Of a stretch of DNA of 47,462 bases, positions 27,841 to 42,063 are shown in pieces. Location of the stretch: UHGV virus genome UHGV-0128156. One strand, given 5' to 3'. A program made the translations under genes and the position numbers. The DNA is from a virus. Position 1 is the first letter of the stretch; each line of letters begins with the position of its first letter. Under the pieces are notes generated by a model, which was not told the origin of the DNA, made no database searches, and saw only the letters and a program-made list of their open reading frames with translations.

Positions 27841-28269
27841 TTATTCCTCTAACTCAGGAGCGGTTCCGCCATCAGCCTGCAGCACACTTTCAGGGATACG
27901 GCTTTCCAACGGCTGCATCTCAAAGATTTTGAGTCCATCGAAACCAAGGAAGGTTGTGTTGGTATTGATATTGCCGGTGATGAAGTCGCTAACATCCATC
28001 AATAAAGCGTTAACGATGCTTTCTGTGTCCTGCCGCCAGTAGTTCTCGATGGCCGTCAGTAACGGATCAGAACCATTGCTAACTGACTGCTCGCCAACCT
28101 GGTAGGTTTTCTTGTTGTCTTTCCCGGTGACACATACCAGCTTGCTGGTCTGCATGGATACCTGATCCGAGTTGTTCACCTTAACGGTGATCGTAGCGAC
28201 CTTATTGCCTTCATCGTTCGTGCTGGAGGCATAGAACATGGCTAGGGTTAGCTCATTACGGTTATACAT
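27841..28269 (-). CDS. Hypothetical protein
   Basis: 142-aa ORF between the HNH cluster and terS. Shares a short TITVKV motif with the two KIEYV paralogues. Confidence 0.5.
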   Translation of the reverse strand: MYNRNELTLAMFYASSTNDEGNKVATITVKVNNSDQVSMQTSKLVCVTGKDNKKTYQVGEQSVSNGSDPLLTAIENYWRQDTESIVNALLMDVSDFITGNINTNTTFLGFDGLKIFEMQPLESRIPESVLQADGGTAPELEE

Positions 28270-28583
28270 TATTGGCTCCGTTGACGGTTACGGCGGCGGC
28301 GGCCACGCGGTTGCGGTTGTTGGGCTGGTGGAAGGAGCTCTCCTTCCTTCGGCGGTTCTGCACTAACTGGAACCGTTGGTTCGGCTTGCACCTGCTGGGG
28401 CGGTGGCGCAGGCATCTCTTCTACCGGACCTCCGCCCATTTCAACCTTCAGCAAGGGCTTTTCCTCGAGCGTATGGCTGAAGTAAAGCGCTGTTACTCCG
28501 GCACCGAGGAATGACGTTCCGTTTTTCTCCAGGGCAACCAACTGCCCATCAACGTATTCAATTTTAAGATTCGTGGCGGTCAT
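28269..28583 (-). CDS. Small protein, KIEYV-family paralogue 1 (Pro/Gln-rich middle, Arg-rich C-terminal tail)
   Basis: Start MTATNLKIEYVDGQLVA is ATGA-coupled to the HNH stop. Paralogous N-terminus to the gene at 28942..29226. Confidence 0.55.
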   Translation of the reverse strand: MTATNLKIEYVDGQLVALEKNGTSFLGAGVTALYFSHTLEEKPLLKVEMGGGPVEEMPAPPPQQVQAEPTVPVSAEPPKEGELLPPAQQPQPRGRRRRNRQRSQ

Positions 28584-28942
28584 CGCGTTCTCTCTGTTGC
28601 TGTTTTCTTTCTGTGACATGGCCAGCACAACGACTCCAGGTTGGAGTCGTCATCAGTACCGCCGTGGGCTTTAGGGATGATGTGGTCGACGCTGGTAGCT
28701 TTTGTGGCTATGCCGTGGCGTCGGCAGTTCTGACAAAGATATTTGTCGTGCTGGAGAACTCTGGCGCGGCGAATTTCCCACGGTCGGCCATAACCCCTTT
28801 CATGCCGACTTTTCCCAGCCTGATAATTGCGCCAACCATCGCCAGCATGTTGCAGTCGGTGGGCGTCACAATATCCGCTGGCATCATTGGTTATTGCCGC
28901 GCACCCCCGGTGGCGGCATGGGCGTTTAGAGCGGGCTGGCAT
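28580..28942 (-). CDS. HNH endonuclease (terminase-associated)
   Basis: CxxC...H..H...N...CxxCH motifs. Typical position upstream of terS in HK97-like phages. Confidence 0.85.
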   Translation of the reverse strand: MPARSKRPCRHRGCAAITNDASGYCDAHRLQHAGDGWRNYQAGKSRHERGYGRPWEIRRARVLQHDKYLCQNCRRHGIATKATSVDHIIPKAHGGTDDDSNLESLCWPCHRKKTATERTR

Positions 28943-29226
28943 TAGCGGTTATTCTTAATCGCAGACCAGGCTTTACTACCCGGTCTAAACGCAATATTTA
29001 AAGCGGTATCAATCCGCTTAGATATGTCGTTACCGACATCATCTATCGTCTTCAGGGCTGCGCTAGCATCCATATCAACTTTTATCGTAATGGTTGAAGT
29101 CTGTTTTTCCTTACAATCGGCGCCTGGCTTGATGCTCAATGCGGGGATTGTTGTACCGAATATTGAGCCAGAAACTAAATGGCCAGCAATGACGCCATTA
29201 ACGTATTCAATCTTGATATTTTGCAT
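28942..29226 (-). CDS. Small protein, KIEYV-family paralogue 2
   Basis: MQNIKIEYVNGVIAG... AAGG RBS. Preceded by an intrinsic terminator. Confidence 0.55.
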   Translation of the reverse strand: MQNIKIEYVNGVIAGHLVSGSIFGTTIPALSIKPGADCKEKQTSTITIKVDMDASAALKTIDDVGNDISKRIDTALNIAFRPGSKAWSAIKNNR

Positions 29227-29241
29227 CATGGACCTTTATGA

Positions 29242-29270
29242 ATAAAAAAGCCTCGCATCTGCGAGGCTAC
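29242..29270 (-). terminator. Intrinsic terminator between the AT-rich island / lysis region and the packaging genes
   Basis: Minus strand reads AGCCTCGCAGATGCGAGGCT followed by TTTTTTATTC. Confidence 0.7.
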
Positions 29271-29445
29271 TGGTTAAACATCATGGTGTTGCTGGGCGGC
29301 ATTGAGAAAACTCTATTCAAAGGCTATTTGGCAAAAGAAACATCCGGATTTAGAACTTGATGTATCCAGTGCATTGAAATATCCGAAAAATGTGATAACG
29401 TCAGTTTGGACCAAAACGATAACTGTTTTTATTCATATTACATCT

Positions 29446-29480
29446 CGCCCTGTTCCCCCATAAAACAGGGCGTTTTTTTA
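29446..29480 (+). terminator. Orphan plus-strand intrinsic terminator in the AT-rich intergenic island
   Basis: CGCCCTGTTcccccataaAACAGGGCG followed by TTTTTTTATTC. There is no plus-strand gene upstream. Confidence 0.6.
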
Positions 29481-29588
29481 TTCGCCCACCAGAAAAATCA
29501 ACACAAAACGTATGGGCTAGATACATTAATACCCATAAAAAAGGCCGCATCAGCGACCGTAGGAAATAAGGAAAATATATTTCCACAA

Positions 29589-29768
29589 TCAGGCATACAT
29601 CCAACCTAACACACTAATAATTATTGCTAGTACGATTAAAGTTATGGCCGTCTTGCGCATGAATACACCATAAAACGCCAATGCCATTCCAATACAAACG
29701 ACTATCAATACAGGCCACATGTTAAGCAAAAGTAATAAGTAAGCTTCCAAATCGCTGTGAATCGTCAC
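29589..29768 (-). CDS. Putative 59-aa two-TM small membrane protein (GTG start with GGAG RBS)
   Basis: VTIHSDLEAYLLLLLNMWPVLIVVCIGMALAFYGVFMRKTAITLIVLAIIISVLGWMYA. Lies in the low-GC island downstream of the spanin genes. Below the ORF-track cutoff. Confidence 0.3.
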   Translation of the reverse strand: MTIHSDLEAYLLLLLNMWPVLIVVCIGMALAFYGVFMRKTAITLIVLAIIISVLGWMYA

Positions 29769-30107
29769 AATTACTCCGAATTCATTAAGTCAGCCATTCC
29801 ATAGTTCAAAACTTCGTCACACGATATCATGTGATTGCCCCTTACAAGACCAGATCCTATCACAAAATTTTAACAAGAGAGTGCTGTTTGTGAGCAGTAT
29901 CGGGAGATTTACCCACTACCCTTAGATGAGATAGACATTCTCATCGATTTGTTATTTGCCAGGATATCGCACCTGAACTGCTCTGAAAATATTTTCGAGT
30001 TATTTACCGCTTACGCTTGTTGTTTCTGAGCTGGCTTCTAGGCTAAAAGAGCCATTACATAAAAGACCTTGCGTTTACTTACCCGTGGACCTCAAGGATG
30101 AGGCCAT

Positions 30108-30341
30108 TTATTTCACTCGCTGAGAGGAGTTAATGCTCTGGCAGTTAGCTAGCACCAATTTATTGTGCGCCAGAATGTCGCGCTTGGTCTGCTTATCCAG
30201 CACGTCGATATCGTGGTCGGTCAGGTAGATAATTCGTACCCAGCTGCAGGCCGTATCAACCACCACCGGGGCGGGTAAAGTTTTCGCGCAGCTCCCGATC
30301 AACATCGTCATCAGGCATATGGCTAACAGTCTGCTGAACAT
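30108..30341 (-). CDS. o-spanin (Rz1-like outer-membrane lipoprotein), overlapping the 3' part of the i-spanin gene in another frame
   Basis: MFSRLLAICLMTMLIGSC gives a lipobox. AGAGAGG RBS inside the i-spanin gene. Extends beyond the i-spanin stop. Confidence 0.6.
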   Translation of the reverse strand: MFSRLLAICLMTMLIGSCAKTLPAPVVVDTACSWVRIIYLTDHDIDVLDKQTKRDILAHNKLVLANCQSINSSQRVK

Positions 30342-30519
30342 TGCTGGCCTCTCTGGTGGCTTCCTCTTTCCGTTCAGCCGCGGCGACGCTAGCAGCGGCT
30401 TTCTCTTCAGTACGCTTTTGTGCTGCTTTGGCTTCTGCCTTACTGGTCCCGCGGCCGAACGCACCAGCGATAGCACCCAGGATGAGGACCACCAGCCCAG
30501 CAATAATTTCAAAGCTCAT
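30256..30519 (-). CDS. i-spanin (Rz-like)
   Basis: N-terminal TM helix MSFEIIAGLVVLILGAIAGAF followed by a charged helical periplasmic region. ATGA-coupled to the upstream gene. Confidence 0.55.
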   Translation of the reverse strand: MSFEIIAGLVVLILGAIAGAFGRGTSKAEAKAAQKRTEEKAAASVAAAERKEEATREASNVQQTVSHMPDDDVDRELRENFTRPGGG

Positions 30520-30863
30520 TGTTGCGGCTCCTTCTGTTCGTCGGCCTTATCTTTCAATGCTGGCTGGCGTACGTATTGTGAGAGCACCGCCAGCACTACC
30601 AGGGCGGGACTAATCATCGCAACGATGTTTGGCGGCAAGATGTTTTTGATGTCCGGTGGCAGCATCGCCCAGGCATGAAGTGCTGCATGCGGGAATGACT
30701 GCGCCCATACACCAACCAGTGCACCAGCTGTCCCCAGACGAACAGACCAAGTTCTAAGTAACAGGCGAGCATGTCCCACAAACTCAAGACGGGTATACTT
30801 TCTTAACAGCAACAACGTTAAAACAGCCACCAGTGCAAGCAGGAAGAAAATAATAAGCTTCAT
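30516..30863 (-). CDS. Lysis-cassette membrane protein (about 3 predicted TM helices)
   Basis: MKLIIFFLLALVAVLTLLLL plus two further hydrophobic segments. ATGA-coupled on both sides, between the endolysin and i-spanin genes. Confidence 0.55.
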   Translation of the reverse strand: MKLIIFFLLALVAVLTLLLLRKYTRLEFVGHARLLLRTWSVRLGTAGALVGVWAQSFPHAALHAWAMLPPDIKNILPPNIVAMISPALVVLAVLSQYVRQPALKDKADEQKEPQQ

Positions 30864-31402
30864 AGGTTTACTCTCTCCTTCACCCACCCGAAGAGAAATT
30901 CTTCATTGGCTTCCCGCGCTTCCGCCAGTTCGAGATACCGTGCGCCCTGACTGCAGTTCAACCCTTTCAGTATCACCGTGCCCCCGGCACTACCCCGTAA
31001 GGCGAGGTAACTGCGCAGCGCGGCGATCGTGATGTTCCCGATGACGCCATCTGGTTTCAGGTCGGGATACAGTTTGCCGCGTTGGTTCAGTGCCGTCAGC
31101 CAACGCTGCAGGAAAGTTGTGGAAACACGCGGCCCCATGTTGACGCCGGTATCGCATAACTCTTCTGCGATTGATGGTGACAGTTCGGCGATCTTGTCAA
31201 ATTTGGGCTCCAACCAATACTGCTGCATATAGATTTCTTTCGCAGTATCCCTAGGGAGCTCTTTCATATCGCCTTTGTAACCGTATGCACGGGCTGTGTT
31301 CTGGGTGATACCCCAACGAGTAGGACCACCTTTATCATTCGGGTTATTAACGTAACCCCCTTCTTTGCCGAGGATGGCTTCAATGATCTGGTCTGCTGTC
31401 AT
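30860..31402 (-). CDS. Endolysin, glycoside hydrolase family 108 N-terminal domain plus PG_binding_3-type C-terminal domain
   Basis: EGGYVNNPNDKGGPTRWGIT signature of GH108. ATGA overlap with holin. Confidence 0.8.
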   Translation of the reverse strand: MTADQIIEAILGKEGGYVNNPNDKGGPTRWGITQNTARAYGYKGDMKELPRDTAKEIYMQQYWLEPKFDKIAELSPSIAEELCDTGVNMGPRVSTTFLQRWLTALNQRGKLYPDLKPDGVIGNITIAALRSYLALRGSAGGTVILKGLNCSQGARYLELAEAREANEEFLFGWVKERVNL

Positions 31403-31710
31403 TGTGCTTTCACTCCGGTAATGCGTTCCCAAAAGTACGTAAGCGCCACAGAGCCCATCGCACCGCTAATGCCTGAAGTTACCAAGATCATGTAAAGGCT
31501 AAGTCCGCTTTCCACGCTAACCAACCCGCCGATAAGCCCTGTAAACCCGGATACCGCAATTTGAGCGAGAGCGTTAATCCAGCTCCAGGTGGCTTTGTTT
31601 TGCTTAACGTCAATCAGGTATCGGACAAGGCCGCCCCAGCATGACAGAGCAAGGACAATCAGCCATGAAACTCCGGCAATGCTTTCTTTATCTTGCATAC
31701 GTTTAGCCAT
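31399..31710 (-). CDS. Holin
   Basis: 103 aa with 2-3 TM helices and a charged C-terminus. First gene of the lysis cassette, with a GGAGGTGAT RBS. Confidence 0.75.
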   Translation of the reverse strand: MAKRMQDKESIAGVSWLIVLALSCWGGLVRYLIDVKQNKATWSWINALAQIAVSGFTGLIGGLVSVESGLSLYMILVTSGISGAMGSVALTYFWERITGVKAQ

Positions 31711-32236
31711 ATCACCTCCGGGTTAACGGGGTGCTGTGTGAGTTTGAAAGGATCAGGCCCATCGGGCTGATTTAACAACGAGCCGTATCGATGATGAATC
31801 CCGTGAGCCTGAAATGAAAAAGGCCACGCAAATGCGCAGCCTGTAATTGTCGTGGGTAATATTTTTAATTGTCGCCAGAGGATCACTGACGCTGGAAATC
31901 ACCACAAGCGGTTGAAATCTGATCCACCAGATAGCAAAAAGCGCCGCAAGGTAGCGAGGTCATCAAGTGATTGTCTGGTGGCCGGTGCAGATCTCCGGCT
32001 TGAACCTATTCTGGTACTCCCGCGATTTACTAAAGCGACCTGGAGCGCATTAGCGGTCTTCGCTGATTTTCATCGCGTCGGCTTCACGCATCAGCCTGCG
32101 CATTCACCACAACGATAATGGCGCTCAGTGCATTTAAGCCAGGTCCCATAAGGGAAAGTGCCATTATCTGTTGCGCGCTCCGTTTCGTGGAGCAACGTCG
32201 TTTTGCGAAGGCGGAATTGACATGGAGTATTCAGGT

Positions 32237-32267
32237 AAAAAATGCCAGCCTCTGGAGGGGCTGGCAA
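32237..32267 (-). terminator. Late-leader terminator 3
   Basis: Minus strand reads GCCAGCCCCTCCAGAGGCTGGC followed by ATTTTTTACC. Confidence 0.5.
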
Positions 32268-32336
32268 AGGGATGTGACTTCGATTTTGTATTGGGCGTGA
32301 TACACGGGTATCGGTATCACAACTACATTATAGACA

Positions 32337-32366
32337 ATAAAAAAGCCCTGTATCTCTACAGGGCCC
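32337..32366 (-). terminator. Late-leader terminator 2
   Basis: Minus strand reads GGGCCCTGTAGAGATACAGGGC followed by TTTTTTATTGTC. Confidence 0.65.
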
Positions 32367-32639
32367 TGAAATCAGGACAGAAAGAATCGAACACCTAAGG
32401 TGTGTGGTGCCGGGTGCTTCCCGGAGAATCGGCCAGCGAACCGATCCGTGTGCTTACGATAAAAGATAGGAACCGCTGTACACTCCACCGCGTTGGGGAT
32501 TCACCACGCAGGAAAAGTAACAAAAATCTTCACCCACCACACTCAAGATTTTGTCTAAATCTGGAAAATACAACTCGACGATATGACAGGGGTACTGATG
32601 CTCAGCATCTCGCGAATACCCCTGTCGTATCGCCGGAAA

Positions 32640-32664
32640 GCAAAAACCCCGCACTGGCGGGGCT
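32640..32664 (-). terminator. Late-leader terminator 1 (tR'-like)
   Basis: Minus strand reads GCCCCGCCAGTGCGGGG followed by TTTTTGCTTTCC, about 60-85 nt downstream of the predicted late promoter. Confidence 0.65.
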
Positions 32665-32724
32665 CTCGTTATAATCAAATTGTCGCTTTTTGTCGCTGCC
32701 GAGTGGCGCAGCTCTGCCAAGCAT

Positions 32725-32760
32725 GAATGGATTATCTGATTTTTTGGCCCATTTTCAACA
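32725..32760 (-). promoter_or_regulatory. Putative late promoter (pR'-like) downstream of the Q-position gene
   Basis: Minus strand reads TTGAAA, then 16 nt, then GATAAT. A short transcript would end at terminator 1, which is the lambda 6S-RNA arrangement. Confidence 0.5.
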
Positions 32761-32786
32761 TCAAAAGGGATTTATAGCACTTTTTG

Positions 32787-33392
32787 TTAATCAGCCTGAA
32801 TTCCCTTTCGTACCGACAGAAATGTTTTTGCTCTGAATATTTCCAGGCACCATCGCACGCGCTTGCGGGCTTCACCATCTGTTAGCCACGGAGCCACCAG
32901 CTGTAATTCCCGGGTTATGTCAGAGATTTTTTTACGTGTGGTGTAATAACTAACTCCTACCAGATAAACCGGATCCGCCGTTTCAAATGCGCCGAGAACA
33001 CAGCGCTCTACGAATTCGGCATCATCATCATGAATAGCGGAATCTATCAGGCCGATGACAGGCTGAGGCCATAAAATCGCATGTGCTCGGTTTAAGGCTT
33101 GCTGGCCTCGATATCCCTCCTCCCTCGCCTGTTCTATCGCGGCAGTAAATCGTTCCAGCGCTTTATCTGACCAGCGGTCCCCTTTCAAACCTCGCCAGCA
33201 GGAGTGGCCTGTGGGCTTTCGGGGAGCTGTTCCCCCACGCATGCTCTCTCCCCATATTGTAAGTAGCGATTTAATCCAGGCAGACTGAATGCCATTCAGG
33301 GGCGTAAACCGGCCTAACCAGCTTTTGCGAGGCGCGGCGGCCACTGTTTCTAATCCTGCGCGCTGCAGCCGGCGTTGACGTGGTGTCATCAT
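32787..33392 (-). CDS. Putative late-gene regulator at the Q position (antiterminator candidate; no recognisable Q zinc finger)
   Basis: About 200 aa, last gene before the late promoter and terminators. The assignment is positional only. Confidence 0.35.
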   Translation of the reverse strand: MMTPRQRRLQRAGLETVAAAPRKSWLGRFTPLNGIQSAWIKSLLTIWGESMRGGTAPRKPTGHSCWRGLKGDRWSDKALERFTAAIEQAREEGYRGQQALNRAHAILWPQPVIGLIDSAIHDDDAEFVERCVLGAFETADPVYLVGVSYYTTRKKISDITRELQLVAPWLTDGEARKRVRWCLEIFRAKTFLSVRKGIQAD

Positions 33393-33402
33393 GCTCTTCT
33401 CC

Positions 33403-34434
33403 TTACGCCAGAACGCCGAGCGCATAGGCCCGGTCCAGCAATTTAATAATTAATTCCGGCTGACTGCCGTACTCACTCTCGAAAGCAACTGGATCGTGAT
33501 GAAGCGTCCGGTGATGCTTACGGCAAAGAGGGATCGTAAAAATATCGTGTGCCTTGGTACCAACGCCGCCCTGCCCCCATCCGATAAGGTGATGCGCATC
33601 GTCGGCAGACTGACCGCAGCACATACATGGCTGAGTTTTTACCCAGGAAATAAAACCATCTGACACCCAGCGGATCCGCTTAGGTCTGGTGAATAAAGTG
33701 GCTGGTGCCACGGGATCAACAACCACTGGCACCTCTGGTTTTACCGGGGCTGGTGGTCCAGGATGCCTGGCAACCTTAGCAACAAGCGGGGAAAGAATGC
33801 TGGTGGCCGGCACCGATGGGACGATTTCGCTTTCTTTGTAGACTGACTGGAAAACCTCTTCTTTAAGCCGGAGGGAACGGCGCGCCATCTCTTCTGTGAT
33901 TTCGTCCCCTATCCCAACGCTGACAGCCCACCAGCACAATTCAGCAAGTGACAGGGAGCGTTCAGGGTCAAATCCCAGTGCGATACGGGCAGCATCGATT
34001 ATCAGATCTGCGTTATTGATACCTACCAGCCTATCAAGGGTTTGATCGGTCTGGTACTTCAGCTCGTTATCACAATGCCAGCATGCGACGATTGCCCCAG
34101 TTGAATGCCGGAACGTTACCAGCTCTGAATGGTGATAATCAGAATGTGGCCACTGGCAATGCTTAACCCTCTTAAGCAACCAGGATTCGAGACTATTCAC
34201 ACCACCAGCAGCCCTCACTACCCGCTCTTTCATAAAGAATGGTCGAATATCAGGATCATCTCGTAAAGGTTGCCCGACGTCAGGAATGCGCCCGCTTGGT
34301 AGAGCCTTCATTTTTTCTGGCAGAGTCTCCACCAGCACGCGCCCACCGCTGAATAAAGGCATCAACTCTTTCCCGGGTTTAAGCAACACAATTCCCAGGT
34401 GCCGGGCAACATCAACATTTAGTAATGCGCGCAT
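33403..34434 (-). CDS. DUF968-like phage protein with C-terminal HNH-type motif
   Basis: C-terminus CMCCGQSADDAHHLIGWGQGG...CRKHHRTLHHD. Size and position resemble the YdfU/DUF968 proteins of lambdoid prophages. Confidence 0.5.
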   Translation of the reverse strand: MRALLNVDVARHLGIVLLKPGKELMPLFSGGRVLVETLPEKMKALPSGRIPDVGQPLRDDPDIRPFFMKERVVRAAGGVNSLESWLLKRVKHCQWPHSDYHHSELVTFRHSTGAIVACWHCDNELKYQTDQTLDRLVGINNADLIIDAARIALGFDPERSLSLAELCWWAVSVGIGDEITEEMARRSLRLKEEVFQSVYKESEIVPSVPATSILSPLVAKVARHPGPPAPVKPEVPVVVDPVAPATLFTRPKRIRWVSDGFISWVKTQPCMCCGQSADDAHHLIGWGQGGVGTKAHDIFTIPLCRKHHRTLHHDPVAFESEYGSQPELIIKLLDRAYALGVLA

Positions 34435-34637
34435 CAGTCCCTCCACATTTTTTGTGTGTAGGTTCTGTTAATGCGCGGTGGCTTGCTGGATTCCGGCAAC
34501 AGCACACGGAGTTCCCATGAGATAAAGTCGCTCGACAGGCTTTTCTCAACCGGACAATTCTTTTTCCGGTAGCGTTCCGCCAGTTCCAGAGCTTGAGACT
34601 CTGAAAGTTGTTCATGGAGAAACCAGCTTTTCTTCAT
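34434..34637 (-). CDS. Hypothetical 67-aa protein
   Basis: Translationally coupled on both sides (ATGA upstream, TGATG downstream). Confidence 0.45.
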   Translation of the reverse strand: MKKSWFLHEQLSESQALELAERYRKKNCPVEKSLSSDFISWELRVLLPESSKPPRINRTYTQKMWRD

Positions 34638-35026
34638 GGGCGGGCCTCGTACACTCGCAGGAACTCCAGCGCCCGATCACGCGCCCCAGGTTCGTCAGCG
34701 ATCATTTCCTGCAGCAGCTGCACGGCAAGTAATGGTTCCTTTCTTCCGACGACAGAAATCCCACGGGAAACACCGCGAGATAGTTTTATGAAGTTTTTTT
34801 TATGTAACGCACGAAGGTGCAAAGCGACAGCATTCGGTGAGCTAACGCCGAGAAGCCCGGCCAGTTCCTGAACGGTCGGCGGGTAGCCATGCTGATTGAT
34901 ATATGCCACCAGCAGATCAAAAACTTCCTGCTGTCGTGGTGTCAGGTTGTGGAATGAAGAAAGACCGGCACCATCAACATGATCGCCAGCCTGTTCCGCA
35001 TCAGATATTAATTTTGTTTGCGCCAT
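34634..35026 (-). CDS. LexA N-terminal DNA-binding-domain homologue lacking the S24 autocleavage domain
   Basis: [65 protein letters not shown] aligns with the LexA winged-helix DNA-binding domain ([67 protein letters not shown]). Only about 45 further residues and no Ser/Lys peptidase motifs. GGAGAG RBS. Confidence 0.7.
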   Translation of the reverse strand: [130 protein letters not shown]

Positions 35027-35066
35027 GGTTTCTCTCCGTGACGCAGCAGGTATAGGTTGTTCAGGC

Positions 35067-35357
35067 CTATGACGGGAGTGTAACAGAGCCCGGAGGAATC
35101 TGGTAACCCCCTCCGGTCTTTGCTCTTTCAATCATCTGCGAAAACAGCGAGAGAGTCCCCACGATCTCATCGGGCTGCAGAGGCATAAACGAAACAGTAT
35201 CACCGCGACGGTACATTAAAGCGCGCTCACATACGGGAAAAGAGGTGAGACGGGCAACAATTAAACCGTCATCGCATCTGATTACTACATAGCCGGTGTT
35301 CGGCATTTGTTGTTTTTTAGCCACAGCAAAATCCTCAAAATAAACCAGGTCAGCCAC
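35067..35357 (-). CDS. Hypothetical protein immediately downstream of dinI (candidate antirepressor; GTG start, alternative TTG at 35372)
   Basis: Second gene of the LexA-box operon. No recognisable domain. Confidence 0.4.
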   Translation of the reverse strand: MADLVYFEDFAVAKKQQMPNTGYVVIRCDDGLIVARLTSFPVCERALMYRRGDTVSFMPLQPDEIVGTLSLFSQMIERAKTGGGYQIPPGSVTLPS

Positions 35358-35368
35358 TGGACCTCTAC

Positions 35369-35602
35369 TCAATAGAACCAGTCGTCAGCACTTTCCCAGG
35401 TATCCTGAAGGATTTGCTCCACCCGCTTTTTGTCCCCATCCATCCCACCAAGCACACTCAGACCATCAGTACCGGTTCGGCGAATGATAAAACTGCGGTT
35501 GTTAAAGTTTTGGTCATGTCGCCGCAGCAACTCTTTCTCTAATGCCGGGACAGCGCCATCTGGTAGCTTTTTGCGACGATCAATTGTGATTTCCACTTTC
35601 AT
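35369..35602 (-). CDS. dinI: DinI-family protein (DNA-damage-inducible protein I homologue)
   Basis: C-terminus ...KKRVEQILQDTWESADDWFY matches DinI ...KQRISEILQETWESADDWF. AAGGGG RBS. Confidence 0.8.
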   Translation of the reverse strand: MKVEITIDRRKKLPDGAVPALEKELLRRHDQNFNNRSFIIRRTGTDGLSVLGGMDGDKKRVEQILQDTWESADDWFY

Positions 35603-35621
35603 AATTAGCCCCTTATGCAAA

Positions 35622-35664
35622 TACTGTATAAATAAACAGTATACCTGAAGAATGAAATGGTCAA
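35622..35664 (-). promoter_or_regulatory. SOS promoter with a consensus LexA box overlapping the -10
   Basis: TACTGTATAAATAAACAGTA (CTGT-N8-ACAG) at 35622-35641. Minus-strand -10 TATACT at 35638-35643 and -35 TTGACC at 35659-35664. Confidence 0.75.
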
Positions 35665-35723
35665 GACATTAAAGGCACTTCTTGCCAACTCCATGCCTAT
35701 GTTTAGATTGATCTTTTGCTGAA

Positions 35724-35754
35724 AACCAAAAAACCCGCCGAAGCGGGTTTTTAC
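35724..35754. terminator. Bidirectional intrinsic terminator insulating the SOS operon from the upstream early-right operon
   Basis: AAAAAACCCGCCGAAGCGGGTTTTT, with A-runs and T-runs on both sides. Confidence 0.7.
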
Positions 35755-35938
35755 ATGCAACCATACCATTTTGCTCTGTCATTTTTTGCAAAATTGAACA
35801 GTAGAAGGTTCTGTAGCTTTAGAGTCAGAGCGTTTAGATGAGACGACTACCCATGGCTATGTTGCATTGATGCCATACTACGTAGTGAGCTAACCCGTAA
35901 GGCATTAACTAACCACTTATTATGGCTACATCGATTAC

Positions 35939-36382
35939 TTATTTCAGAAATTTGTTATACACGAAGAACTCTCTATCTCGCACAAATCCATTACGCTCAT
36001 ACAACGCCTGTGCAGGGATATTATCTGTAGCGGTACTAAGCATGATAAAAGCCGAATCGCTCTCCTTCGCCAGTTGCTCAGCACGGGATATTAGTTTCTG
36101 TGCAACACCATGCTTCCTAGCTGACTCATCAACGAAAAGGTCATAAAGCAACCAGATACGTTTCATCTCGAGAGAGCAAAACAAAGGATAGAGTTGCGCA
36201 AAGCCGACCGCTTTCCCATCAACATCGGCGTAAAAAATCACGGACTCATTAAGCTGAAGGCGCTTGAGAATAAAATCTCTGGCCTGGGACGCGTTTTCCT
36301 CGACCTTGTAGAAACGACGGTAACCGAGATACAAAGGAAGGATAGTTTCCACATCATGTGGTTGAGCTTGATAAATTTTCAT
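35939..36382 (-). CDS. GNAT family N-acetyltransferase (AT-rich moron)
   Basis: Acetyl-CoA binding motif region ...VDESARKHGVAQKLISRAEQLAKESDSAFIMLST...ALYERNGF. Low GC. Confidence 0.8.
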   Translation of the reverse strand: MKIYQAQPHDVETILPLYLGYRRFYKVEENASQARDFILKRLQLNESVIFYADVDGKAVGFAQLYPLFCSLEMKRIWLLYDLFVDESARKHGVAQKLISRAEQLAKESDSAFIMLSTATDNIPAQALYERNGFVRDREFFVYNKFLK

Positions 36383-36785
36383 ACAAAAAACCCTATTACA
36401 ACTGAGCTTATAATTGTATTACAAATAATTTGCTTGGTTTATCCTTTTGTGGGTTTATGACCATTTTTACTCCCCCATACACATGTTTGGATTATTTTCC
36501 TCCATAAAAAGACCAACTCACCGAAGCGGGCCTTACCATGCCACAATGTCCATTGTCGGCAGATTAGTCCCCATTAACGCCTCAGCGAACGGCGGCGGCA
36601 CATCGTTACCGCAGCACGATACTTCAGCTAAGAGTCCATTACTTCAACTCCTGCGCGTCTATTACCCTGTGCCGCTTCAATTCACATAATGCGCTTAGTA
36701 CCTGGGCAAACTCTTCGACTTCCTGTTTCGAGCCTAATTCATTCATCACTATCAGTTGCCTATTCACTAGTTATGGTTGATTTGG

Positions 36786-37079
36786 TCATGGTTGACTCCA
36801 GTTATCTTCAATCTCCACGCCTAAGCGGTGCAACCAGTCGGCAAGCTTCAGCATCGACTCGCGATCGCTAAGCACTTCCGGAAAATCTTTCAGTTCGATA
36901 GCCGAATTAAAGCGCCCAAAACTATCGCGCTCTATCGTCAGGAATTGCTCCAGAACAGTTTGCTGGGAGCGGCTGCTATGCCGCACCGAGTAAACTGATT
37001 TGGAGTCTTTGGCTTTAGGATCGTAGCGATACTCAATTAGTATCATCTGGCTTCTGCTGCGGTCAGTTCCTCGCCACAT
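36786..37079 (-). CDS. Hypothetical protein
   Basis: 97-aa ORF with a GAGG RBS. No recognised domain. Confidence 0.4.
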   Translation of the reverse strand: MWRGTDRSRSQMILIEYRYDPKAKDSKSVYSVRHSSRSQQTVLEQFLTIERDSFGRFNSAIELKDFPEVLSDRESMLKLADWLHRLGVEIEDNWSQP

Positions 37080-37198
37080 CACTCAGCCTCGACCTTGATG
37101 CCGATGGCAGCTGTGCACACATAAACGATCACGCCATCCTCTGGGCGCTTGCGCGGCAAAAAGATGCCAGTTCGCGGCCACAACGCAATAAAGCGAGA

Positions 37199-37564
37199 TT
37201 AACTGTTTTCAAGACGGCGAAATGCTTTCTCGCTCATCACACCGACCGGGCGAAGATGCCGATGTTCACGCTCCAGCTCGGCAACGCGCTTTTCTGCTGC
37301 TTTGCGCTTACGATACTGAGCTTTGCGGCTGGCCTTGAAGTGATGCATAGCCAGTTCAGCCATGTAGAGTTGGTGGTCTGCGTTAGCTAGCCGTTGACGA
37401 ACCTCATCATTCTCCAGTTCATCATTCCGCTGCTGCGCCATATCCAGCGCCTCTACCAGCGCATCAAGGTCTACTAGCTTTACAAACGTAATATCGTCGC
37501 CAAACTCTTTTACATGGGCTGAGCGGCGTTTGAGACTGGCTAAAAGTCGGGTGATATCAGTCAT
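37199..37564 (-). CDS. Hypothetical coiled-coil protein
   Basis: 121 aa, charged and helical. ATGA-coupled to the upstream HTH gene. Confidence 0.5.
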   Translation of the reverse strand: MTDITRLLASLKRRSAHVKEFGDDITFVKLVDLDALVEALDMAQQRNDELENDEVRQRLANADHQLYMAELAMHHFKASRKAQYRKRKAAEKRVAELEREHRHLRPVGVMSEKAFRRLENS

Positions 37565-37866
37565 GCTGCGAACTCCCCACCTTTCGAACGTTGTGCCTGC
37601 AGCAATTGTTCGAACCTCATTCTGATCGGGTTACCGCAGCCAAACGGCATATCGTTTACTCTCCACATTGGGGAACCGTTTTTAGTGCCCGTCTGGACAA
37701 TCCGTCCGGTACCCGCCAGTTGCCTAACCTGCCCACTGACAGAGCTGCCACTACGCCCCATTGCTCTAGCTATTTCGCCGGACGTCATATCCGGATTAGC
37801 CCTGAGGAACTCAAAAGCGGTTATTTCATTGCGATATTTGGATTTGATTTTTTTGGTCATGGTCAA
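37561..37866 (-). CDS. Small winged-helix / HTH DNA-binding protein
   Basis: TSGEIARAMGRSGSSVSGQVRQLAGTGRIV is a helix-turn-helix. Confidence 0.55.
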   Translation of the reverse strand: MTMTKKIKSKYRNEITAFEFLRANPDMTSGEIARAMGRSGSSVSGQVRQLAGTGRIVQTGTKNGSPMWRVNDMPFGCGNPIRMRFEQLLQAQRSKGGEFAA

Positions 37867-37873
37867 AACTCGT

Positions 37874-38545
37874 TTACCTGGTTAAACCTGCCGCTTTGCG
37901 GCGTTTGTACTCTTCCATCAGAAGCTGTGCTGGTGTTGGCCCTGCCGGATGTCGCGGCGCTTCAAGCTGTCGGCGAATCGGTGGGATCGAGAATCCATTA
38001 GCCAGATGCTTCGTCCACTTCGTGAGTAATTTTTCTGCCAGTTTTTTTAGTTCCCCCTCTGTGAGGTTTCGCTCAACTCCAGTTCTGCGCATCTCAACGC
38101 AGATGTGATACAGCACGTCCTGTTTCCAGGGGTATCTGTCGCTACCCGAATAGCGATAAGACTCATTGCGCCAGCGCTTGTATTCAGCCATCACAGCTTC
38201 GGATGTCAGGTTGAATGGGTTGGCTCCACTCGCCGAAACCAGCGCTACGAATTCAGCCAGATCCGGTGGCCATGTGTTACCCGCGGCGCAGCGCTCCATG
38301 CACTGACGGCAGACCAGGGTAATCTGGGCATCACTCATCGATCCAATCTGGGCAATCCACATATCCGATGGCGCCGCCCCGTTCTTCTGGGTCCACCGGT
38401 TCGAGAATATCTCTCCCATGACCGTCCATAGCCGCCATGCCGTATCCGCCGCCAGCAAGTCCGCGTTGCTTCTCCCAGAGCTCTCTGGCTTCCTGAATTT
38501 GCTGGACTGCCCGGGATGCGGTGTTAACTGATTGAATTCTTGCAT
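37874..38545 (-). CDS. Replication protein P-like (helicase loader); start uncertain (GGAGGT RBS before M at 38545; ORF is open back to 38593)
   Basis: Central and C-terminal region resembles lambda P (...FVA...YPWK...L...ELKKLAE... versus lambda GQFVAWCR...SYPWKSNAHYW...ELRRKAADEL). Confidence 0.6.
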   Translation of the reverse strand: MQEFNQLTPHPGQSSKFRKPESSGRSNADLLAADTAWRLWTVMGEIFSNRWTQKNGAAPSDMWIAQIGSMSDAQITLVCRQCMERCAAGNTWPPDLAEFVALVSASGANPFNLTSEAVMAEYKRWRNESYRYSGSDRYPWKQDVLYHICVEMRRTGVERNLTEGELKKLAEKLLTKWTKHLANGFSIPPIRRQLEAPRHPAGPTPAQLLMEEYKRRKAAGLTR

Positions 38546-39314
38546 TGCCGTTACCTCCGGTTGCTGGGTGTGGTTTGGATTTGGCTCTGGCATTTATCAC
38601 GCTGCGGGCAAATTTCTGCTCCCACTGAACCTGAGTGAACACTTTCCCCTCGGATTTCCAGTACGCGGTGAACTCTGCCAGCTCTGTCGGCAGGTATGCC
38701 GGTTCGGGAAGCGCTATTCCCCAGGTAGCAGCCAGTCTCGGCCAGTCCTGTGATGGCAGCCAAAGGTCGTGCATAGTGAATTTCCCGATCGGAATATCCA
38801 GACCTTGCAAATACTGAGGTTCCTGAAAAACATTTCCCTTGTGCGCGTAGAGAGTGGGGTTTGATCCTTTTCCCTTCCCTTCCATTCCTTTTCCGTCAGT
38901 GAGTCCTCCATGAGGATTCACTGAGTCCTCATGGAGGACTCCTTGATTAGGTGCTCTCTTTTCTTCCTTTCCAGCCTTAGCCTCAGTGAATTCTGGCGGA
39001 AGAGGTATTTTTGAGGCCGAAGGCCTGTTTATTTTTTGATGCTTAAGGAAACCTTTAATCTGCAAATAGCAGACATCATTCACTGAATACTCAGTGAGTA
39101 ATCCATGAGTAATCAGTTCCTGTATTAGTGGTTCGCAATCGAGCGCATCCGCAGGGAAGATTTGCATCTTCAACCGTTTTGGCGAACGCTCAAGGCATCC
39201 CATGTCGTTGGCGAAGTTGAACAACCCGATAAACAGGAGACGCGCTGGAATTGAACATTCCACCACCTTCTCATCTGTCCAGAATTCAGGTTTAACTGTT
39301 CTGATGCGGGCCAT
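38331..39314 (-). CDS. Replication initiation / replisome organiser protein (O-position); C-terminal 70 aa overlap the P-like gene in another frame
   Basis: 327-aa ORF with an AAGAGG RBS. N-terminus MARIRTVKPEFWTDEKV. Positioned between the cII-position gene and the P-like gene. Confidence 0.5.
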   Translation of the reverse strand: MARIRTVKPEFWTDEKVVECSIPARLLFIGLFNFANDMGCLERSPKRLKMQIFPADALDCEPLIQELITHGLLTEYSVNDVCYLQIKGFLKHQKINRPSASKIPLPPEFTEAKAGKEEKRAPNQGVLHEDSVNPHGGLTDGKGMEGKGKGSNPTLYAHKGNVFQEPQYLQGLDIPIGKFTMHDLWLPSQDWPRLAATWGIALPEPAYLPTELAEFTAYWKSEGKVFTQVQWEQKFARSVINARAKSKPHPATGGNGNARIQSVNTASRAVQQIQEARELWEKQRGLAGGGYGMAAMDGHGRDILEPVDPEERGGAIGYVDCPDWIDE

Positions 39315-39365
39315 CTGAAACCTCTTATTAACCAGCTGGTGCTGGTGGTCATTGTCAAAACTCGA

Positions 39366-39926
39366 TTAGAAAAACTGCGGCGCTACGGCGCTGATACTCG
39401 CCAGTAGTGGTCCCGCCGCATCTGCAGGGAGCATGTTAAAAAGTGCAATTGCAGCTTCCCGTATTTCACGCTCTAGCTTCTGCAGAGGTGCGCCAAGTAA
39501 CTTGGCCTGGTGCGCTTCGCTGCATTCTTTGATTGCATTGGCCACCAGCTCGGTTTCAGTTAAGCCACGTTTTAGGCCATGTTTGCGCGCGATCTCTATC
39601 GGCATTGCATCAGCGATCGCCGCCGAAAGCTGGATGACATAACTGGTGTACTTCTCTGAACCGCCCTCGTTTTTAAGGTAGCGATACAGATTTTGTTTAT
39701 TGACGCTGATACCGCGCCCGTTTTGTTTCTCCCACTGTTCGGCCACCAGCTGCGCGACGTGGTCTTGCGCACGCCCAGGTAATGAGGACTCCCATTCCTG
39801 AACGGCGGCCAAAATGGCTCGGCATTTCTTGCCGTCACGCCGACGGGGCAAATACTGATTTTCCGTTTTCAGTTGCATACTCATCACCGGAGTATGATTT
39901 TCAAAAGAGATGGTTTGCATGGTCAC
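39366..39926 (-). CDS. Hypothetical early protein at the cII position (possible CII/CP76-like regulator)
   Basis: ATGA-coupled to cro. 186 aa. The assignment is positional. Confidence 0.3.
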   Translation of the reverse strand: MTMQTISFENHTPVMSMQLKTENQYLPRRRDGKKCRAILAAVQEWESSLPGRAQDHVAQLVAEQWEKQNGRGISVNKQNLYRYLKNEGGSEKYTSYVIQLSAAIADAMPIEIARKHGLKRGLTETELVANAIKECSEAHQAKLLGAPLQKLEREIREAAIALFNMLPADAAGPLLASISAVAPQFF

Positions 39927-40138
39927 TCCTTAGGTATTCCATCCGTTGGATTCGGATATAGATCAGGACGTAATTCATGAGGCGTAACGCCCGTTGCATT
40001 AAAAACCTGTAAAACTCGCGATGAAGGCACAATACCTTTTGTTTTCCACTGACTTACTGCCATGCCGCTTACTCCAAGCGTTGATGCTAATTTATTGGCT
40101 GAGCCAGCTACTCGAATTGCGTTATCAAGGGCTGTCAT
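39923..40138 (-). CDS. cro: Cro-like HTH transcriptional regulator
   Basis: GSANKLASTLGVSGMAVSQW...GVTPHELRPDLYP matches Cro/YdaS-type HTH proteins. Divergent from the repressor gene, with a GAGGAG RBS. Confidence 0.75.
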   Translation of the reverse strand: MTALDNAIRVAGSANKLASTLGVSGMAVSQWKTKGIVPSSRVLQVFNATGVTPHELRPDLYPNPTDGIPKE

Positions 40139-40159: not shown

Positions 40160-40236
40160 GGCATAATAAAGCATAGGTTTATATTCAATGCAAATTTTTA
40201 ATTTATTGTGGCTATAAACTAAACCTTTACAATGGG
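40160..40236. promoter_or_regulatory. Immunity-region operator/promoter block (oR with pR toward cro and a pRM-like leaderless promoter toward the repressor)
   Basis: 17-bp operator-like sites ATAAAGCATAGGTTTAT (40166-40182) and ATAAACTAAACCTTTAC (40214-40230). pR has -35 TTGCAT and -10 TTTATT on the minus strand. The plus strand has TTGTGG, 17 nt, then TACAAT ending 6 nt before the cI-like ATG. Confidence 0.55.
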
Positions 40237-40239
40237 CTT

Positions 40240-40629
40240 ATGAAAAACACTGAAGAACTCAACAACCAACTGATTGCTCGTTTGGAAGAAATTACTCAAA
40301 GAGGGATCAGCAAGGCGGATATGGCTCGCATTGCTGGAGTTACACCTCAAGCGGTGAATGGGTGGTTTAAGAAAGGAGTAATCAGTAAAAAGTCCGCAAT
40401 TGCCCTCGCGGAAGCTGCCAATGTGTCTGTAACTTGGTTGCTTGGAGAGAAGGTATCTGAAGATTCAGGCCTCAAGCCAAATGAGAGCAAAATGTTACGC
40501 CTGTTTAGGCAGTTACCTGAGGCAGAACAAGAGAGAATGATCGATACTTTTGAAGTCCGCCTAAAAGAAATCGATGATTATGTTGAGAAATATCTTCGTG
40601 GTCGATTTAAGGCTAGAGACACTAACTAA
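40240..40629 (+). CDS. CI-like prophage repressor, HTH only, without an S24 autocleavage domain
   Basis: HTH ISKADMARIAGVTPQAVNGWFKKGVISKKSAIALAEAANV. 129 aa with no Ser-Lys peptidase domain. Divergent from cro. Confidence 0.7.
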   Translation: MKNTEELNNQLIARLEEITQRGISKADMARIAGVTPQAVNGWFKKGVISKKSAIALAEAANVSVTWLLGEKVSEDSGLKPNESKMLRLFRQLPEAEQERMIDTFEVRLKEIDDYVEKYLRGRFKARDTN

Positions 40630-40649
40630 CATCTCTGATCTCACCCCAT

Positions 40650-40678
40650 GAAACCGGCAAATGCCGGTTTTTTTTTGC
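40650..40678 (+). terminator. Strong intrinsic terminator after the repressor gene
   Basis: AACCGGCAAATGCCGGTT followed by T9. Confidence 0.8.
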
Positions 40679-40744
40679 CTGCCGCACAGCCTCAATCAAT
40701 CCAACAGCTCCCCTGTCTCGATTAAAGCAAAAGTTTGCATCAGT

Positions 40745-40790
40745 ATAAATCCAATGTTGACATCAAACATAAACCAATGCTTTAATCATT
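40745..40790 (+). promoter_or_regulatory. pL-like early-left promoter with oL operator sites
   Basis: TTGACA, 18 nt, then TTTAAT. The overlapping 17-mer ATAAACCAATGCTTTAA and the flanking TTTGCATCAGTATAAAT resemble the oR sites ATAAACCTATGCTTTAT and TTTGCATTGAATATAAA. Confidence 0.55.
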
Positions 40791-40976
40791 CCATCGCAGC
40801 AAGTCATCGAGGCAGGAAGCCCACGTAGTAGCTGCCGGCGGCATACGAAACACCGGATGAGATGACGACCAAAAGAATTCGCAGCAGGTTTTAACGTTCC
40901 GCTGGCCCGCGTTACAGGCATGACACAGGACATCGCTATGAGAATAGAAGTATGCAGGAGAGGGAAGATTTACTTT

Positions 40977-41291
40977 TTACTCGTCTCCCAAATCAAACTC
41001 TCCGTCGCGCGAGATTTGGAGGCCCGATTCGGCGACCGCGTAATCAATGCAGCTTTTGGTACTGACATCTCGTGCCTCGATTTCGCACCAGGAGATGAAC
41101 TCGTAAGTGCTGGCTACCACCTTAACAACCTGGATACCGCTGTTTTCGTAGCGCTCCACCATGCTATCTGCGCGGATACGCCAGTCGTAATAGTCAAAGG
41201 GTAGGACGTAAGCATCTGAAAGGATTTTTTGGAATTCTTCGTAGTGAACGGGATCTTCGTACCAGAAGACAGGTATAGGGCTACGGGACAT
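40977..41291 (-). CDS. Hypothetical acidic protein encoded antisense to the pL transcript
   Basis: 104 aa with enterobacterial codon usage (TAC/TTC/GAA). GAGAG RBS. Confidence 0.5.
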   Translation of the reverse strand: MSRSPIPVFWYEDPVHYEEFQKILSDAYVLPFDYYDWRIRADSMVERYENSGIQVVKVVASTYEFISWCEIEARDVSTKSCIDYAVAESGLQISRDGEFDLGDE

Positions 41292-41428
41292 TTTGCTCTC
41301 TTTTCTTGGATGTGTGAGAACTCCAAGAATACCACCGAGCCTGAAGTGGTGAAAAGACAGGCAAATCAATAAACAGGCTTTGCAACACAGTGAATGCGGC
41401 TAAGCGCACGCGACACAGTTAAAAGGTA

Positions 41429-41449
41429 AACATGGGCGGTTTCCATGTT
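41429..41449. promoter_or_regulatory. Perfect 7-bp inverted repeat AACATGG-N7-CCATGTT (candidate regulator binding site)
   Basis: Sits in the intergenic region between the minus-strand gene start and the small plus-strand genes. Confidence 0.35.
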
Positions 41450-41558
41450 GCGGGAAAAAACAGGTCGGCAGCAGTTGTTAACTGGCTGCAGCCACCGGGA
41501 GGCACCCGGCGCCGTGCTGCAAAGCCCCCTACCCATCAATAAACGGGAGATGAATATG

Positions 41559-41678
41559 ACAGATTTTGCCCGAGTACCGACTGGCCACCAGGCAACACGA
41601 CTGAACTGGTTTGAAGCAAGGCTACGTCAGCTTTGCTACCTGTTAGCCCAGAAAGGGAACCCTGAGGCTAAAGCATGA
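41559..41678 (+). CDS. Small 39-aa protein
   Basis: GGGAG RBS. ATGA-coupled to the next small gene. Confidence 0.35.
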   Translation, partial: TDFARVPTGHQATRLNWFEARLRQLCYLLAQKGNPEAKA

Positions 41679-41869
41679 ATACGCTGTTTGCCCTTGTCAT
41701 CAGCGTGTGCGCCCTGACCAGCGAGTGCTCTGATGTCCTGATAGGCGTGTATCCATCTGAGACCAGTTGTAACAGCGATGCTGAGGCCCAGAAGGTAAAA
41801 GGCACATGCCAGCCATACAAAAAGGCATTGAAGACGGCTGACGACCAACAGCCTGCAGTAAGTTTCTGA
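41675..41869 (+). CDS. Small secreted Cys-containing protein (signal peptide)
   Basis: MNTLFALVISVCALTSECSD... has a hydrophobic N-terminus. 64 aa. Confidence 0.4.
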   Translation: MNTLFALVISVCALTSECSDVLIGVYPSETSCNSDAEAQKVKGTCQPYKKALKTADDQQPAVSF

Positions 41870-42013
41870 TTCGGGTTTTGAGAATGACTACTGAACACCA
41901 CCAGCCTGAAAAAGGCCCATAAAGCACAAAACCCGCGCAAGGCGGGTTAAGTACCCCGGTTAGCCGACCAAAGCTTTCCGGATTCGAGTTTTGACAATGA
42001 CCACTACCCAGAG
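41868..42013. repeat. Two imperfect 28-32-bp direct repeats (GATTCG(G/A)GTTTTGA(G/C)AATGAC(T/C)ACT) flanking a GC-rich hairpin upstream of the exonuclease gene
   Basis: Copies at 41868-41899 and 41981-42013, with the hairpin AACCCGCgcaagGCGGGTT at 41930-41948. Confidence 0.5.
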
Positions 42014-42063
42014 GGAGCTTTCACAGTCCCGGGTATCTTACAGCCTTAAGGAACCCAAACGCA

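Follow-up and report, generated by a model that had tools for sequence, protein, structure and literature searches.

We wondered how a prophage might switch on its late genes when the gene in the position of the late antiterminator Q lies downstream of a promoter overlapped by a LexA box. The question is raised by the virus genome UHGV-0128156, analyzed here as one stretch of 47,462 nucleotides (nt; the window), which is a lambdoid prophage with its early-right and late genes on the minus strand. An initial annotation had placed the Q-position gene in the same SOS-driven transcription unit as dinI, insulated from the early-right operon by a bidirectional terminator, and had proposed that late gene activation is coupled directly to the SOS response. 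We found the membership of Q in the SOS unit to be partly supported, a direct link from SOS to Q being a possibility that is not essential. On balance we lean towards two tandem units instead of one operon, unit 1 being an SOS module and unit 2 the Q operon. The module is a further example of the published Gifsy-type SOS "dinI plus antirepressor" switch, an architecture already in the literature.

In the two-unit reading, a LexA-repressed promoter would drive dinI and an 85-amino acid (aa) protein, and DNA damage would lead to LexA cleavage, production of the antirepressor, inactivation of the prophage repressor and the lytic programme. Unit 2 would be transcribed from a sigma-70 promoter (P_int) in the last codons of the 85-aa open reading frame (ORF) and would comprise the translationally coupled genes for a LexA N-terminal-domain (LexA-NTD) protein, a 67-aa protein, a DUF968 protein and Q. 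Q would act at a pR'-like promoter to let RNA polymerase pass four terminators and reach the lysis and structural genes, and a stem at the start codon of unit 2 together with a terminator-like hairpin would hold Q low in the lysogen. SOS transcripts probably run on into unit 2 and add Q because nothing terminates between the units, but this read-through would be an auxiliary input and not the required route. The reading is carried by sequence features, conservation, the fold of the Q-position protein and homology to the Gifsy prophages; LexA control, antirepressor action, a mapped start site and the sufficiency of the antirepressor are known from the literature on relatives. The related loci collected number 165, and individual counts below use subsets of 59, 75, 77, 85 or 87.

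The Q-position gene ends a tightly packed operon

The genes of unit 2 and the sites that follow them are:

35026..34634, minus strand: LexA-NTD protein, 130 aa, no peptidase domain (PF01726, 3e-21)
34637..34434, minus strand: 67-aa ORF (PHROG 1212; 40% identity to Gifsy-2 STM1021.1n)
34434..33403, minus strand: DUF968/HNH nuclease-like gene in the nin-region nuclease slot (PF06147, 7e-68; PHROG 96)
33392..32787, minus strand: Q-type late antiterminator, 201 aa, ATG at 33392 (PHROG 753 'Q-like', 4e-57)
32758..32731, minus strand: pR'-like late promoter TTGAAA-16-GATAAT (10/12), directly after Q
32665..31819, minus strand: noncoding late leader, 1.07 kb overall, ahead of the holin gene (31710) and then the lysis, head and tail genes
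32665..32643, 32367..32342, 32266..32241 and 31842..31819, minus strand: canonical terminators of the late leader

The assignment of the Q-position gene as late activator is sound. Its product gave no sequence match in Pfam, NCBIfam or the PDB but belongs to PHROG 753, whose Q-like annotation agrees with the predicted fold. Homologues are about 200 aa long, and an AlphaFold2 model built from 25 of them reached a predicted local distance difference test score (pLDDT) of 75.8 and a predicted template modelling score (pTM) of 0.65. When this model was searched with Foldseek, the top eight PDB matches were all Q21 chains (probability 0.96-1.00, template modelling score 0.61-0.67 on the target), with unrelated matches below a probability of 0.12; the model thus points to a Q21 fold. 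The pR'-like site that comes next, followed by the terminators, is the best promoter-like site in 28000..40000. The other gene identities of the initial annotation were borne out by PF06183 for dinI, PF01726 for the LexA-NTD gene and PF06147 for DUF968.

The LexA-NTD and 67-aa genes overlap by 4 nt (ATGA), the 67-aa and DUF968 genes by 1 nt (TGATG), and a 10-nt gap separates the DUF968 stop from Q. A hairpin-plus-U-tract scan found no canonical terminator between 35620 and 32787, and Gifsy-2 likewise has no canonical terminator ahead of Q. Read-through of SOS transcripts into Q is physically plausible, since neither a canonical terminator nor a sizeable gap intervenes and the LexA promoter lies upstream. 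The claim that no terminator lies on the way to Q therefore holds for canonical ones, with the reservation that a conserved terminator-like hairpin is present at 34992..34950. Similarly, the tight packing argues for Q in one SOS unit, but the conserved P_int element at 35106..35077 argues against it; the initial annotation had noted neither the hairpin nor P_int. Among the relatives, the spacing of the dinI/85-aa/LexA-NTD/67-aa/DUF968 block is identical, and the Q family comes next in about two thirds.

A conserved promoter element heads the Q operon

35106..35077, minus strand: P_int, with -35 TTACCA at 35106..35101, an 18-nt spacer, TG at 35085..35084 and -10 TACACT at 35082..35077

P_int (TTACCA-18-TGtTACACT) sits at the 3' end of the 85-aa ORF, with a predicted start at about 35070. 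The promoter keeps a fixed geometry in 85 of 85 related loci, and its extended -10 is found in 84 of them, together with a TTACCA-like -35 placed 18 nt upstream; the -10 reads TGT-TACAAT in 53 loci, TGT-TACACT in 27, TAAACT in three and TATGAT in one. Every locus conserves a block made up of the final 17 nt of the 85-aa ORF and the adjoining leader (TCTGTTACACTCCCGTCATAGGCCTGAACAACC...CACGGAGAGAAACCATG), and this block persists even where the upstream ORF is of another family or replaced.

The Gifsy prophages allow the element to be compared with a mapped start site. In Gifsy-2 the aligned positions read TTGACT-18-CATAAT, in register with the P_int elements, and form the top promoter-like site in 3.9 kb (10/12). 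As in the window, 9 nt lie between the -10 and a shared GGCCTGAACAACC motif, and the predicted Gifsy-2 start falls 1,604 nt upstream of the Q ATG. The published figure is 1,600: according to Hershko-Shalev et al. (2016, PMC4825925, citing Kroger et al. 2013), the Gifsy-1 start site lies 1,600 bases upstream of antQ, and the antQ operon is given as SL2582-SL2581-SL2580-antQ. Q of the best-studied relative is thus served by a promoter of its own, mapped directly behind the antirepressor gene, and a homologous element is present in the window. From this homology we infer that P_int is active in the window phage.

The leader of the Q operon is structured

Two predicted RNA structures follow P_int in the window, and the leader recurs in relatives:

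35045..35019, minus strand: start-codon stem of 7 base pairs (bp; UGCGUCA...UGGCGCA) with the Shine-Dalgarno sequence in the loop
34992..34950, minus strand (stem 34992..34962): coding hairpin of 13 bp with a moderately U-rich tail (folding free energy (dG) -16.7, z-score -2.9)
6722..6778 of locus L089 and 4319..4365 of locus L005: shared leader in relatives

In the start-codon stem, the first gene of the operon has the U and G of its AUG base-paired; the stem is seen in the window, in the Klebsiella classes, in Kluyvera and in Gifsy-2. Its variable pair is U-A in 67 loci, U.G in 13 and C-G in five, with no mismatch among these 85 loci. The coding hairpin, with UUCUUCAUUCC behind it, lies inside the 5' end of the LexA-NTD gene, where the N-terminal tail of the protein is poorly conserved, and keeps a constant position about 78-120 nt downstream of the predicted P_int start. 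It is present in 72 of 75 loci and falls into three sequence classes, whose inner stems differ and which all fold (z -2.2 to -4.8); folding z-scores were taken per class, since the three classes pair in shifted registers. G.U pairs are present, which argues for an RNA structure rather than a DNA palindrome, and the weak U tract makes the hairpin at most a partial terminator.

Kluyvera loci that lack the LexA-NTD gene carry the leader, a 30-codon mini-ORF, an 8-bp hairpin, UUUCUUUUUGUCUUUUUU and then a 67-aa-like gene, an arrangement that looks like an attenuator. The coding hairpin of the window is a possible attenuator as well, and the leader structures, one of them terminator-like, probably damp read-through into Q. 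They are the most interesting loose end of this locus.

Three first genes that are unrelated to one another follow this leader (GGCCTGAACAACC at 35055..35067 together with the start-codon stem), namely the LexA-NTD gene in the window, the irsA/NinB-like gene in Gifsy and the 30-codon mini-ORF in Kluyvera. The promoter and leader therefore behave as a mosaic unit. The analysis thus identifies a conserved promoter-leader cassette at the head of the Q operon that is common to phages with differing first genes.

The SOS module and a candidate antirepressor

The features of unit 1 and the repressor gene are:

35622..35664, minus strand: SOS promoter (P_SOS), -35 TTGACC at 35664..35659 and -10 TATACT/TACTGT at 35643..35636
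35602..35369, minus strand: dinI homologue, 77 aa, ATG at 35602 (PF06183, 1e-21; NF007893; 60% identity to Gifsy-2 DinI)
35324..35067, minus strand: 85-aa ORF ('p101'), probable GTG start with GAGGA 8 nt upstream (PHROG 1813)
40240..40629, plus strand (divergent): prophage repressor, 129 aa, DicA-like helix-turn-helix

A LexA box (TACTGTATAAATAAACAGTA, 35622..35641) matches the consensus at 18 of 20 positions and overlaps the -10 of P_SOS. It is the sole match in the 47 kb at up to three mismatches, where none is expected by chance, and it is kept in 73 of 77 relatives. Its surroundings share homology with the dinI promoter of Gifsy, and the 19 nt from the end of the box to the dinI ATG equal the distance reported for the three Gifsy dinI homologues, whose expression rises 4.6- to 23-fold with nalidixic acid.

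Directly after dinI follows the 85-aa ORF, which has no match in Pfam, NCBIfam or the PDB. It occupies the slot of the antirepressor gene gftA/gfoA in Gifsy. The order published for the Gifsy prophages is a terminator-like palindrome, the LexA box, dinI, the antirepressor gene and irsA, and the region is conserved in prophages of Escherichia, Citrobacter, Klebsiella and Enterobacter (PMC3121763). The repressors of Gifsy-1, -2 and -3 are short and are not cleaved, and induction needs cleavage of LexA (Lemire et al. 2011, PMC3121763); the Gifsy antirepressors cross-act, and GftA starts with GUG (PMC3121763). In the Gifsy-1 and -2 genomes we found terminator hairpins, LexA box, dinI, gftA, irsA, a small ORF, NinG, a further small ORF and Q. 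Homologues of the 85-aa ORF encode 81-85 aa and in every case have dinI as their immediate upstream neighbour; this holds for the free phages SPN3UB and mEp237 too, where nin genes and Q again lie downstream. The same gene order is shared by Gifsy-1/2, SPN3UB, mEp237 and the Klebsiella phages.

Judged by its slot, its size, its GTG start and the non-cleavable repressor, the 85-aa protein is most likely an antirepressor. Such a protein suits the window prophage because the 129-aa repressor is short, non-cleavable and DicA-like (profile searches found no S24 autocleavage domain in it), and this repressor is the presumed target of the SOS-made antirepressor. Candidate repressor operators (TAAAGCA-N3-GTTT) lie at 40167..40180 (the right operator, OR) and, inverted, at 40723..40736 and 40771..40784 (the left operator, OL). 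Operators of this type (TAAAGCAnnnGTTT) are confined to OR and OL, with none near P_int or P_SOS; a lone extra TAAAGCAnnnGTTT-type match with one mismatch lies inside DUF968 and is likely due to chance. Between OR and OL, a 40-nt stretch is 75% complementary.

A strong terminator lies upstream in the window phage

35752..35729, minus strand: intrinsic terminator tUP, 10 pairs (dG -14.5 kcal/mol, z -2.9 versus shuffles)

The strong terminator that the initial annotation had seen between the replication/GNAT genes and the LexA promoter is indeed there, about 90 nt from the LexA box. On the minus strand its DNA reads AAAAACCCGC-TTCG-GCGGGTTTTT followed by TGGTTTT, and as RNA AAAAACCCGC-UUCG-GCGGGUUUUU followed by UGGUUUU; it is of the type ACCCGC-N4-GCGGGT with A and T runs on the flanks, that is, a GC stem, a UUCG loop and a U6GGU4 tail. 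On the plus strand the sequence forms a hairpin just as readily (dG -14.1, z -3.9), which makes tUP bidirectional in shape. The assertion of a bidirectional terminator can be followed to this extent only, as the U run on the plus strand is shorter (UUUUUAC) and no convergent plus-strand gene that would need tUP was found. A plus-strand role by way of the promoter-like site at 35682..35709 was considered and rejected: relatives do not keep the spacing of this site, and it would yield a transcript of about 40 nt. Minus-strand DNA at 35665..35720, in the 50-60 nt upstream of the P_SOS -35 (AAGATCAATCTAAACATRGGCATGG...AAGTGNC), is conserved across relatives up to the terminator or other upstream DNA and may serve as an UP element or bind a regulator.

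tUP would cut down or stop read-through from pR and the GNAT gene. Insulation of the SOS module from the early-right operon, as initially described, would apply to the window phage but is not a conserved property of the module, since tUP is missing in about 70% of related modules. An ACCCGC-N4-GCGGGT hairpin about 110 nt upstream of the LexA box occurs in 16 of 59 distinct related upstream sequences, and Gifsy-2 has a homologous hairpin at the same place; the main Klebsiella class has no hairpin at this position. In the window phage, transcription from pR into Q depends on leakage through a strong tUP, whereas most relatives are without this barrier.

A check for N-like antitermination, suggested along with the first description of the terminator, came out negative. 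No N-like family was found among the early-left ORFs (40629..42064), no boxA in the early regions (the sole GCTCTTTA match, at 23609, is at chance level) and no Rfam antitermination RNA in the window. The missing N and nut are absence of evidence only.

Q need not depend directly on SOS

In Gifsy, lysis and high phage titres follow when the antirepressor gene, relocated to the ara locus under PBAD, is switched on with arabinose (PMC3121763). Because the PBAD-driven antirepressor suffices while LexA is intact, Q for a productive Gifsy cycle needs no derepression of the LexA promoter. The proposed coupling of late genes to SOS is left with plausible read-through on its side, and with this experiment, the conserved promoter of the Q operon and the non-conserved upstream terminator against it. 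Gifsy-1 antQ mRNA rises 4-fold within 9 min of H2O2 (PMC4825925), a rise that is compatible with SOS read-through.

These observations bear on several explanations that compete with two tandem units. If a single SOS operon ran from the LexA promoter to Q, with the terminator blocking pR in a phage without N, LexA cleavage would be the main trigger of Q and the late genes. Such an operon agrees with the overlapping or closely abutting genes, the lack of a canonical terminator from 35620 to 32787, the strong terminator upstream and the failure to find an N-like protein or boxA, and the antQ rise is quick enough for direct control. We nevertheless consider it decidedly unlikely, given that the conserved internal promoter agrees with the mapped Gifsy start site, that the PBAD-driven antirepressor gives lysis and high titres without LexA cleavage, and that SPN3UB and mEp237, free phages with the same module, have to make Q when they infect uninduced cells; moreover, a conserved hairpin with a U-rich tail stands between the SOS promoter and Q, and the upstream terminator is missing in most relatives. 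A lambda-type scheme would instead supply Q mainly by read-through from pR, with tUP leaky or overcome by unrecognised antitermination, like lambda tR2-tR4, and P_SOS serving only dinI and the antirepressor. In lambda the nin-region terminators lie upstream of Q, which is well established and sets a precedent; in the roughly 70% of relatives without tUP, transcription from pR would flow through dinI to Q, and derepression by the antirepressor alone is enough for the lytic cycle in Gifsy. This scheme is unlikely for the window phage, where the terminator is canonical and strong and neither an N-like gene, a boxA nor an Rfam antitermination RNA was found, and it leaves both the conserved geometry at 35106..35077 and the Gifsy start site unexplained.

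The coding hairpin (34992..34962) might also be an efficient terminator for both SOS and P_int transcripts, which would insulate Q and make it dependent on an anti-attenuation signal. Conservation in 72 of 75 loci despite differing inner stems, the constant distance of 70-110 nt from the predicted start and the Kluyvera analogue, with its 30-codon mini-ORF before and UUUCUUUUUGUCUUUUUU after the hairpin, speak for such a role. It is highly unlikely all the same: the tail holds only 3-5 U in its first 8 nt in the window and Klebsiella classes, ribosomes would melt a hairpin inside a translated ORF, Gifsy irsA lacks it, and no candidate anti-attenuator was identified. One could further imagine that in terminator-bearing members without N, pR never reaches Q, and that P_SOS and P_int both feed a translation-dependent attenuator. 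Ribosome-loaded SOS transcripts would then open the leader and read to Q far better, and LexA cleavage would license the late genes directly and early. We hold this to be distinctly improbable; if true, it would be a departure from the lambda cascade.

Several points weigh against the two tandem units that we prefer. The 85-aa protein showed no similarity to GftA by BLASTP, and its AlphaFold model is poor (pLDDT 53.6), so that only its location, its size and the type of its start codon speak for the antirepressor role. No co-variation was seen between its alleles and those of the repressor: near-identical 85-aa alleles (loci L091-L168) pair with at least five different repressor alleles, which are 99%, 44%, 39%, 32% and 29% identical to the window's, which suggests that the protein, if an antirepressor, is broadly cross-reactive or aimed at a conserved feature. 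P_int of the window has a weak -35 (4/6) and a -10 of 4/6 and is saved only by its TG motif, and the Gifsy start-site map is cited second-hand, via Hershko-Shalev et al. A constitutive promoter ahead of a toxic Q would need damping, which we infer from the leader structures. The U tract of the coding hairpin is poor in some classes, and Gifsy irsA has no such hairpin (z 0.16).

Neighboring genes and the late leader

The best DNA match to the window is to Klebsiella phages (77% identity over 60% of the query, with the same gene order), and near-identity DNA searches turned up nothing close among the phage and E. coli records. Upstream of tUP lie:

40138..39923, minus strand: Cro/DicC-like gene
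39926..39366, minus strand: CII-like gene
39314..37874, minus strand: replication genes, then a MarR-like gene and two small ORFs
36382..35939, minus strand: GNAT acetyltransferase gene, with the terminator 187 nt further on

Among 87 relatives found with DUF968 as query, only the window and locus L016 (97%) carry the GNAT gene, which has about 400 nt of noncoding DNA in front of it and 187 nt behind it. It has the look of a moron placed directly ahead of the terminator.

The LexA-NTD protein sits where Gifsy has irsA (NinB-like), and has no similarity to IrsA; in SfV, mEp460 and Stx2 phages, homologues are common within the nin region. The protein aligns to residues 4-92 of E. coli LexA and retains the S-P-N-A of the recognition helix, with V-A-L in place of LexA A43-E44-E45. 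In its linker, 'IADEP' stands where LexA has the cleavage site 'AAGEP', with D at the G85 position, and the protein resembles an uncleavable N-terminal fragment of LexA. Possible roles are feedback on SOS promoters or the regulation of phage genes, for which GIL01 gp6 is a precedent.

Beyond DUF968 (loci L002-L168, locus positions 6025..6660), roughly a third of the relatives carry something other than the Q21-fold Q of this family. This swap marks a sharp mosaic boundary where the conserved SOS/nin block gives way to the late regulator.

In the late leader we found one further feature:

32538..32333, minus strand: match to the small RNA STnc100 (RF02076, 59.5 bits, E 2e-10)

It is the sole Rfam match in the window, lies between the first and second late terminators and ends at the second (32367..32342). 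A prophage small RNA may have been carved from the Q-controlled leader.

Comparison with known systems

The Gifsy-type logic of host LexA, antirepressor and non-cleavable repressor would extend to many prophages of the Klebsiella/Enterobacter/Kluyvera type with different cargo. Were SOS read-through into Q substantial, antibiotics that trigger the SOS response would activate lysis and late-operon cargo faster than the classical cascade predicts.

The Gifsy module shares with the window the succession of palindrome, LexA box, dinI, small non-AUG ORF (size range taken as about 70-95 aa), nin genes and Q, placed after the replication genes and in company with a short repressor that lacks a cleavage domain. 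Its promoter, dinI (60%), 67-aa ORF (40%) and the 5' leader of the next gene are homologous to those of the window. It differs in its host and DNA, in a small ORF unrelated to that of the window, which stands in the place of gftA, and in irsA and NinG where the window has the LexA-NTD gene and the DUF968/HNH nuclease; the window's Q is also of another family, without a Pfam match. The antQ operon of Gifsy-1 resembles unit 2 in its four genes ending in Q and a start site in the gap behind the antirepressor gene, and the leader of the window is homologous to it with -10 and -35 in register. By contrast, the window promoter has an extended -10 and a less strong -35, and the IsrK/AnrP elements downstream of Q were not found in the window, which has the STnc100 match instead.

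Lambda likewise has terminators between the replication genes and Q, and a constitutive-looking promoter and terminators after Q and before the lysis genes. Unlike lambda, the window has no detected N or nut/boxA, and on the way from the terminator to Q it carries SOS and internal promoters. Coliphage 186 Tum and N15 AntC are alike in the LexA box over a small antirepressor gene and in a tie to DinI, Tum having a DinI-like half, but they come from other types of phage with another gene order, share no sequence similarity with the window and do not have the antirepressor gene immediately ahead of a Q operon. In GIL01 of Bacillus thuringiensis (PMC6182141), host LexA is the prophage repressor and gp6, a LexA homologue, activates the late promoter. 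GIL01 is a tectivirus with neither a Q antiterminator nor an antirepressor, yet it provides the precedent both for a direct link between SOS and late genes and for a phage-encoded LexA-like DNA-binding protein.

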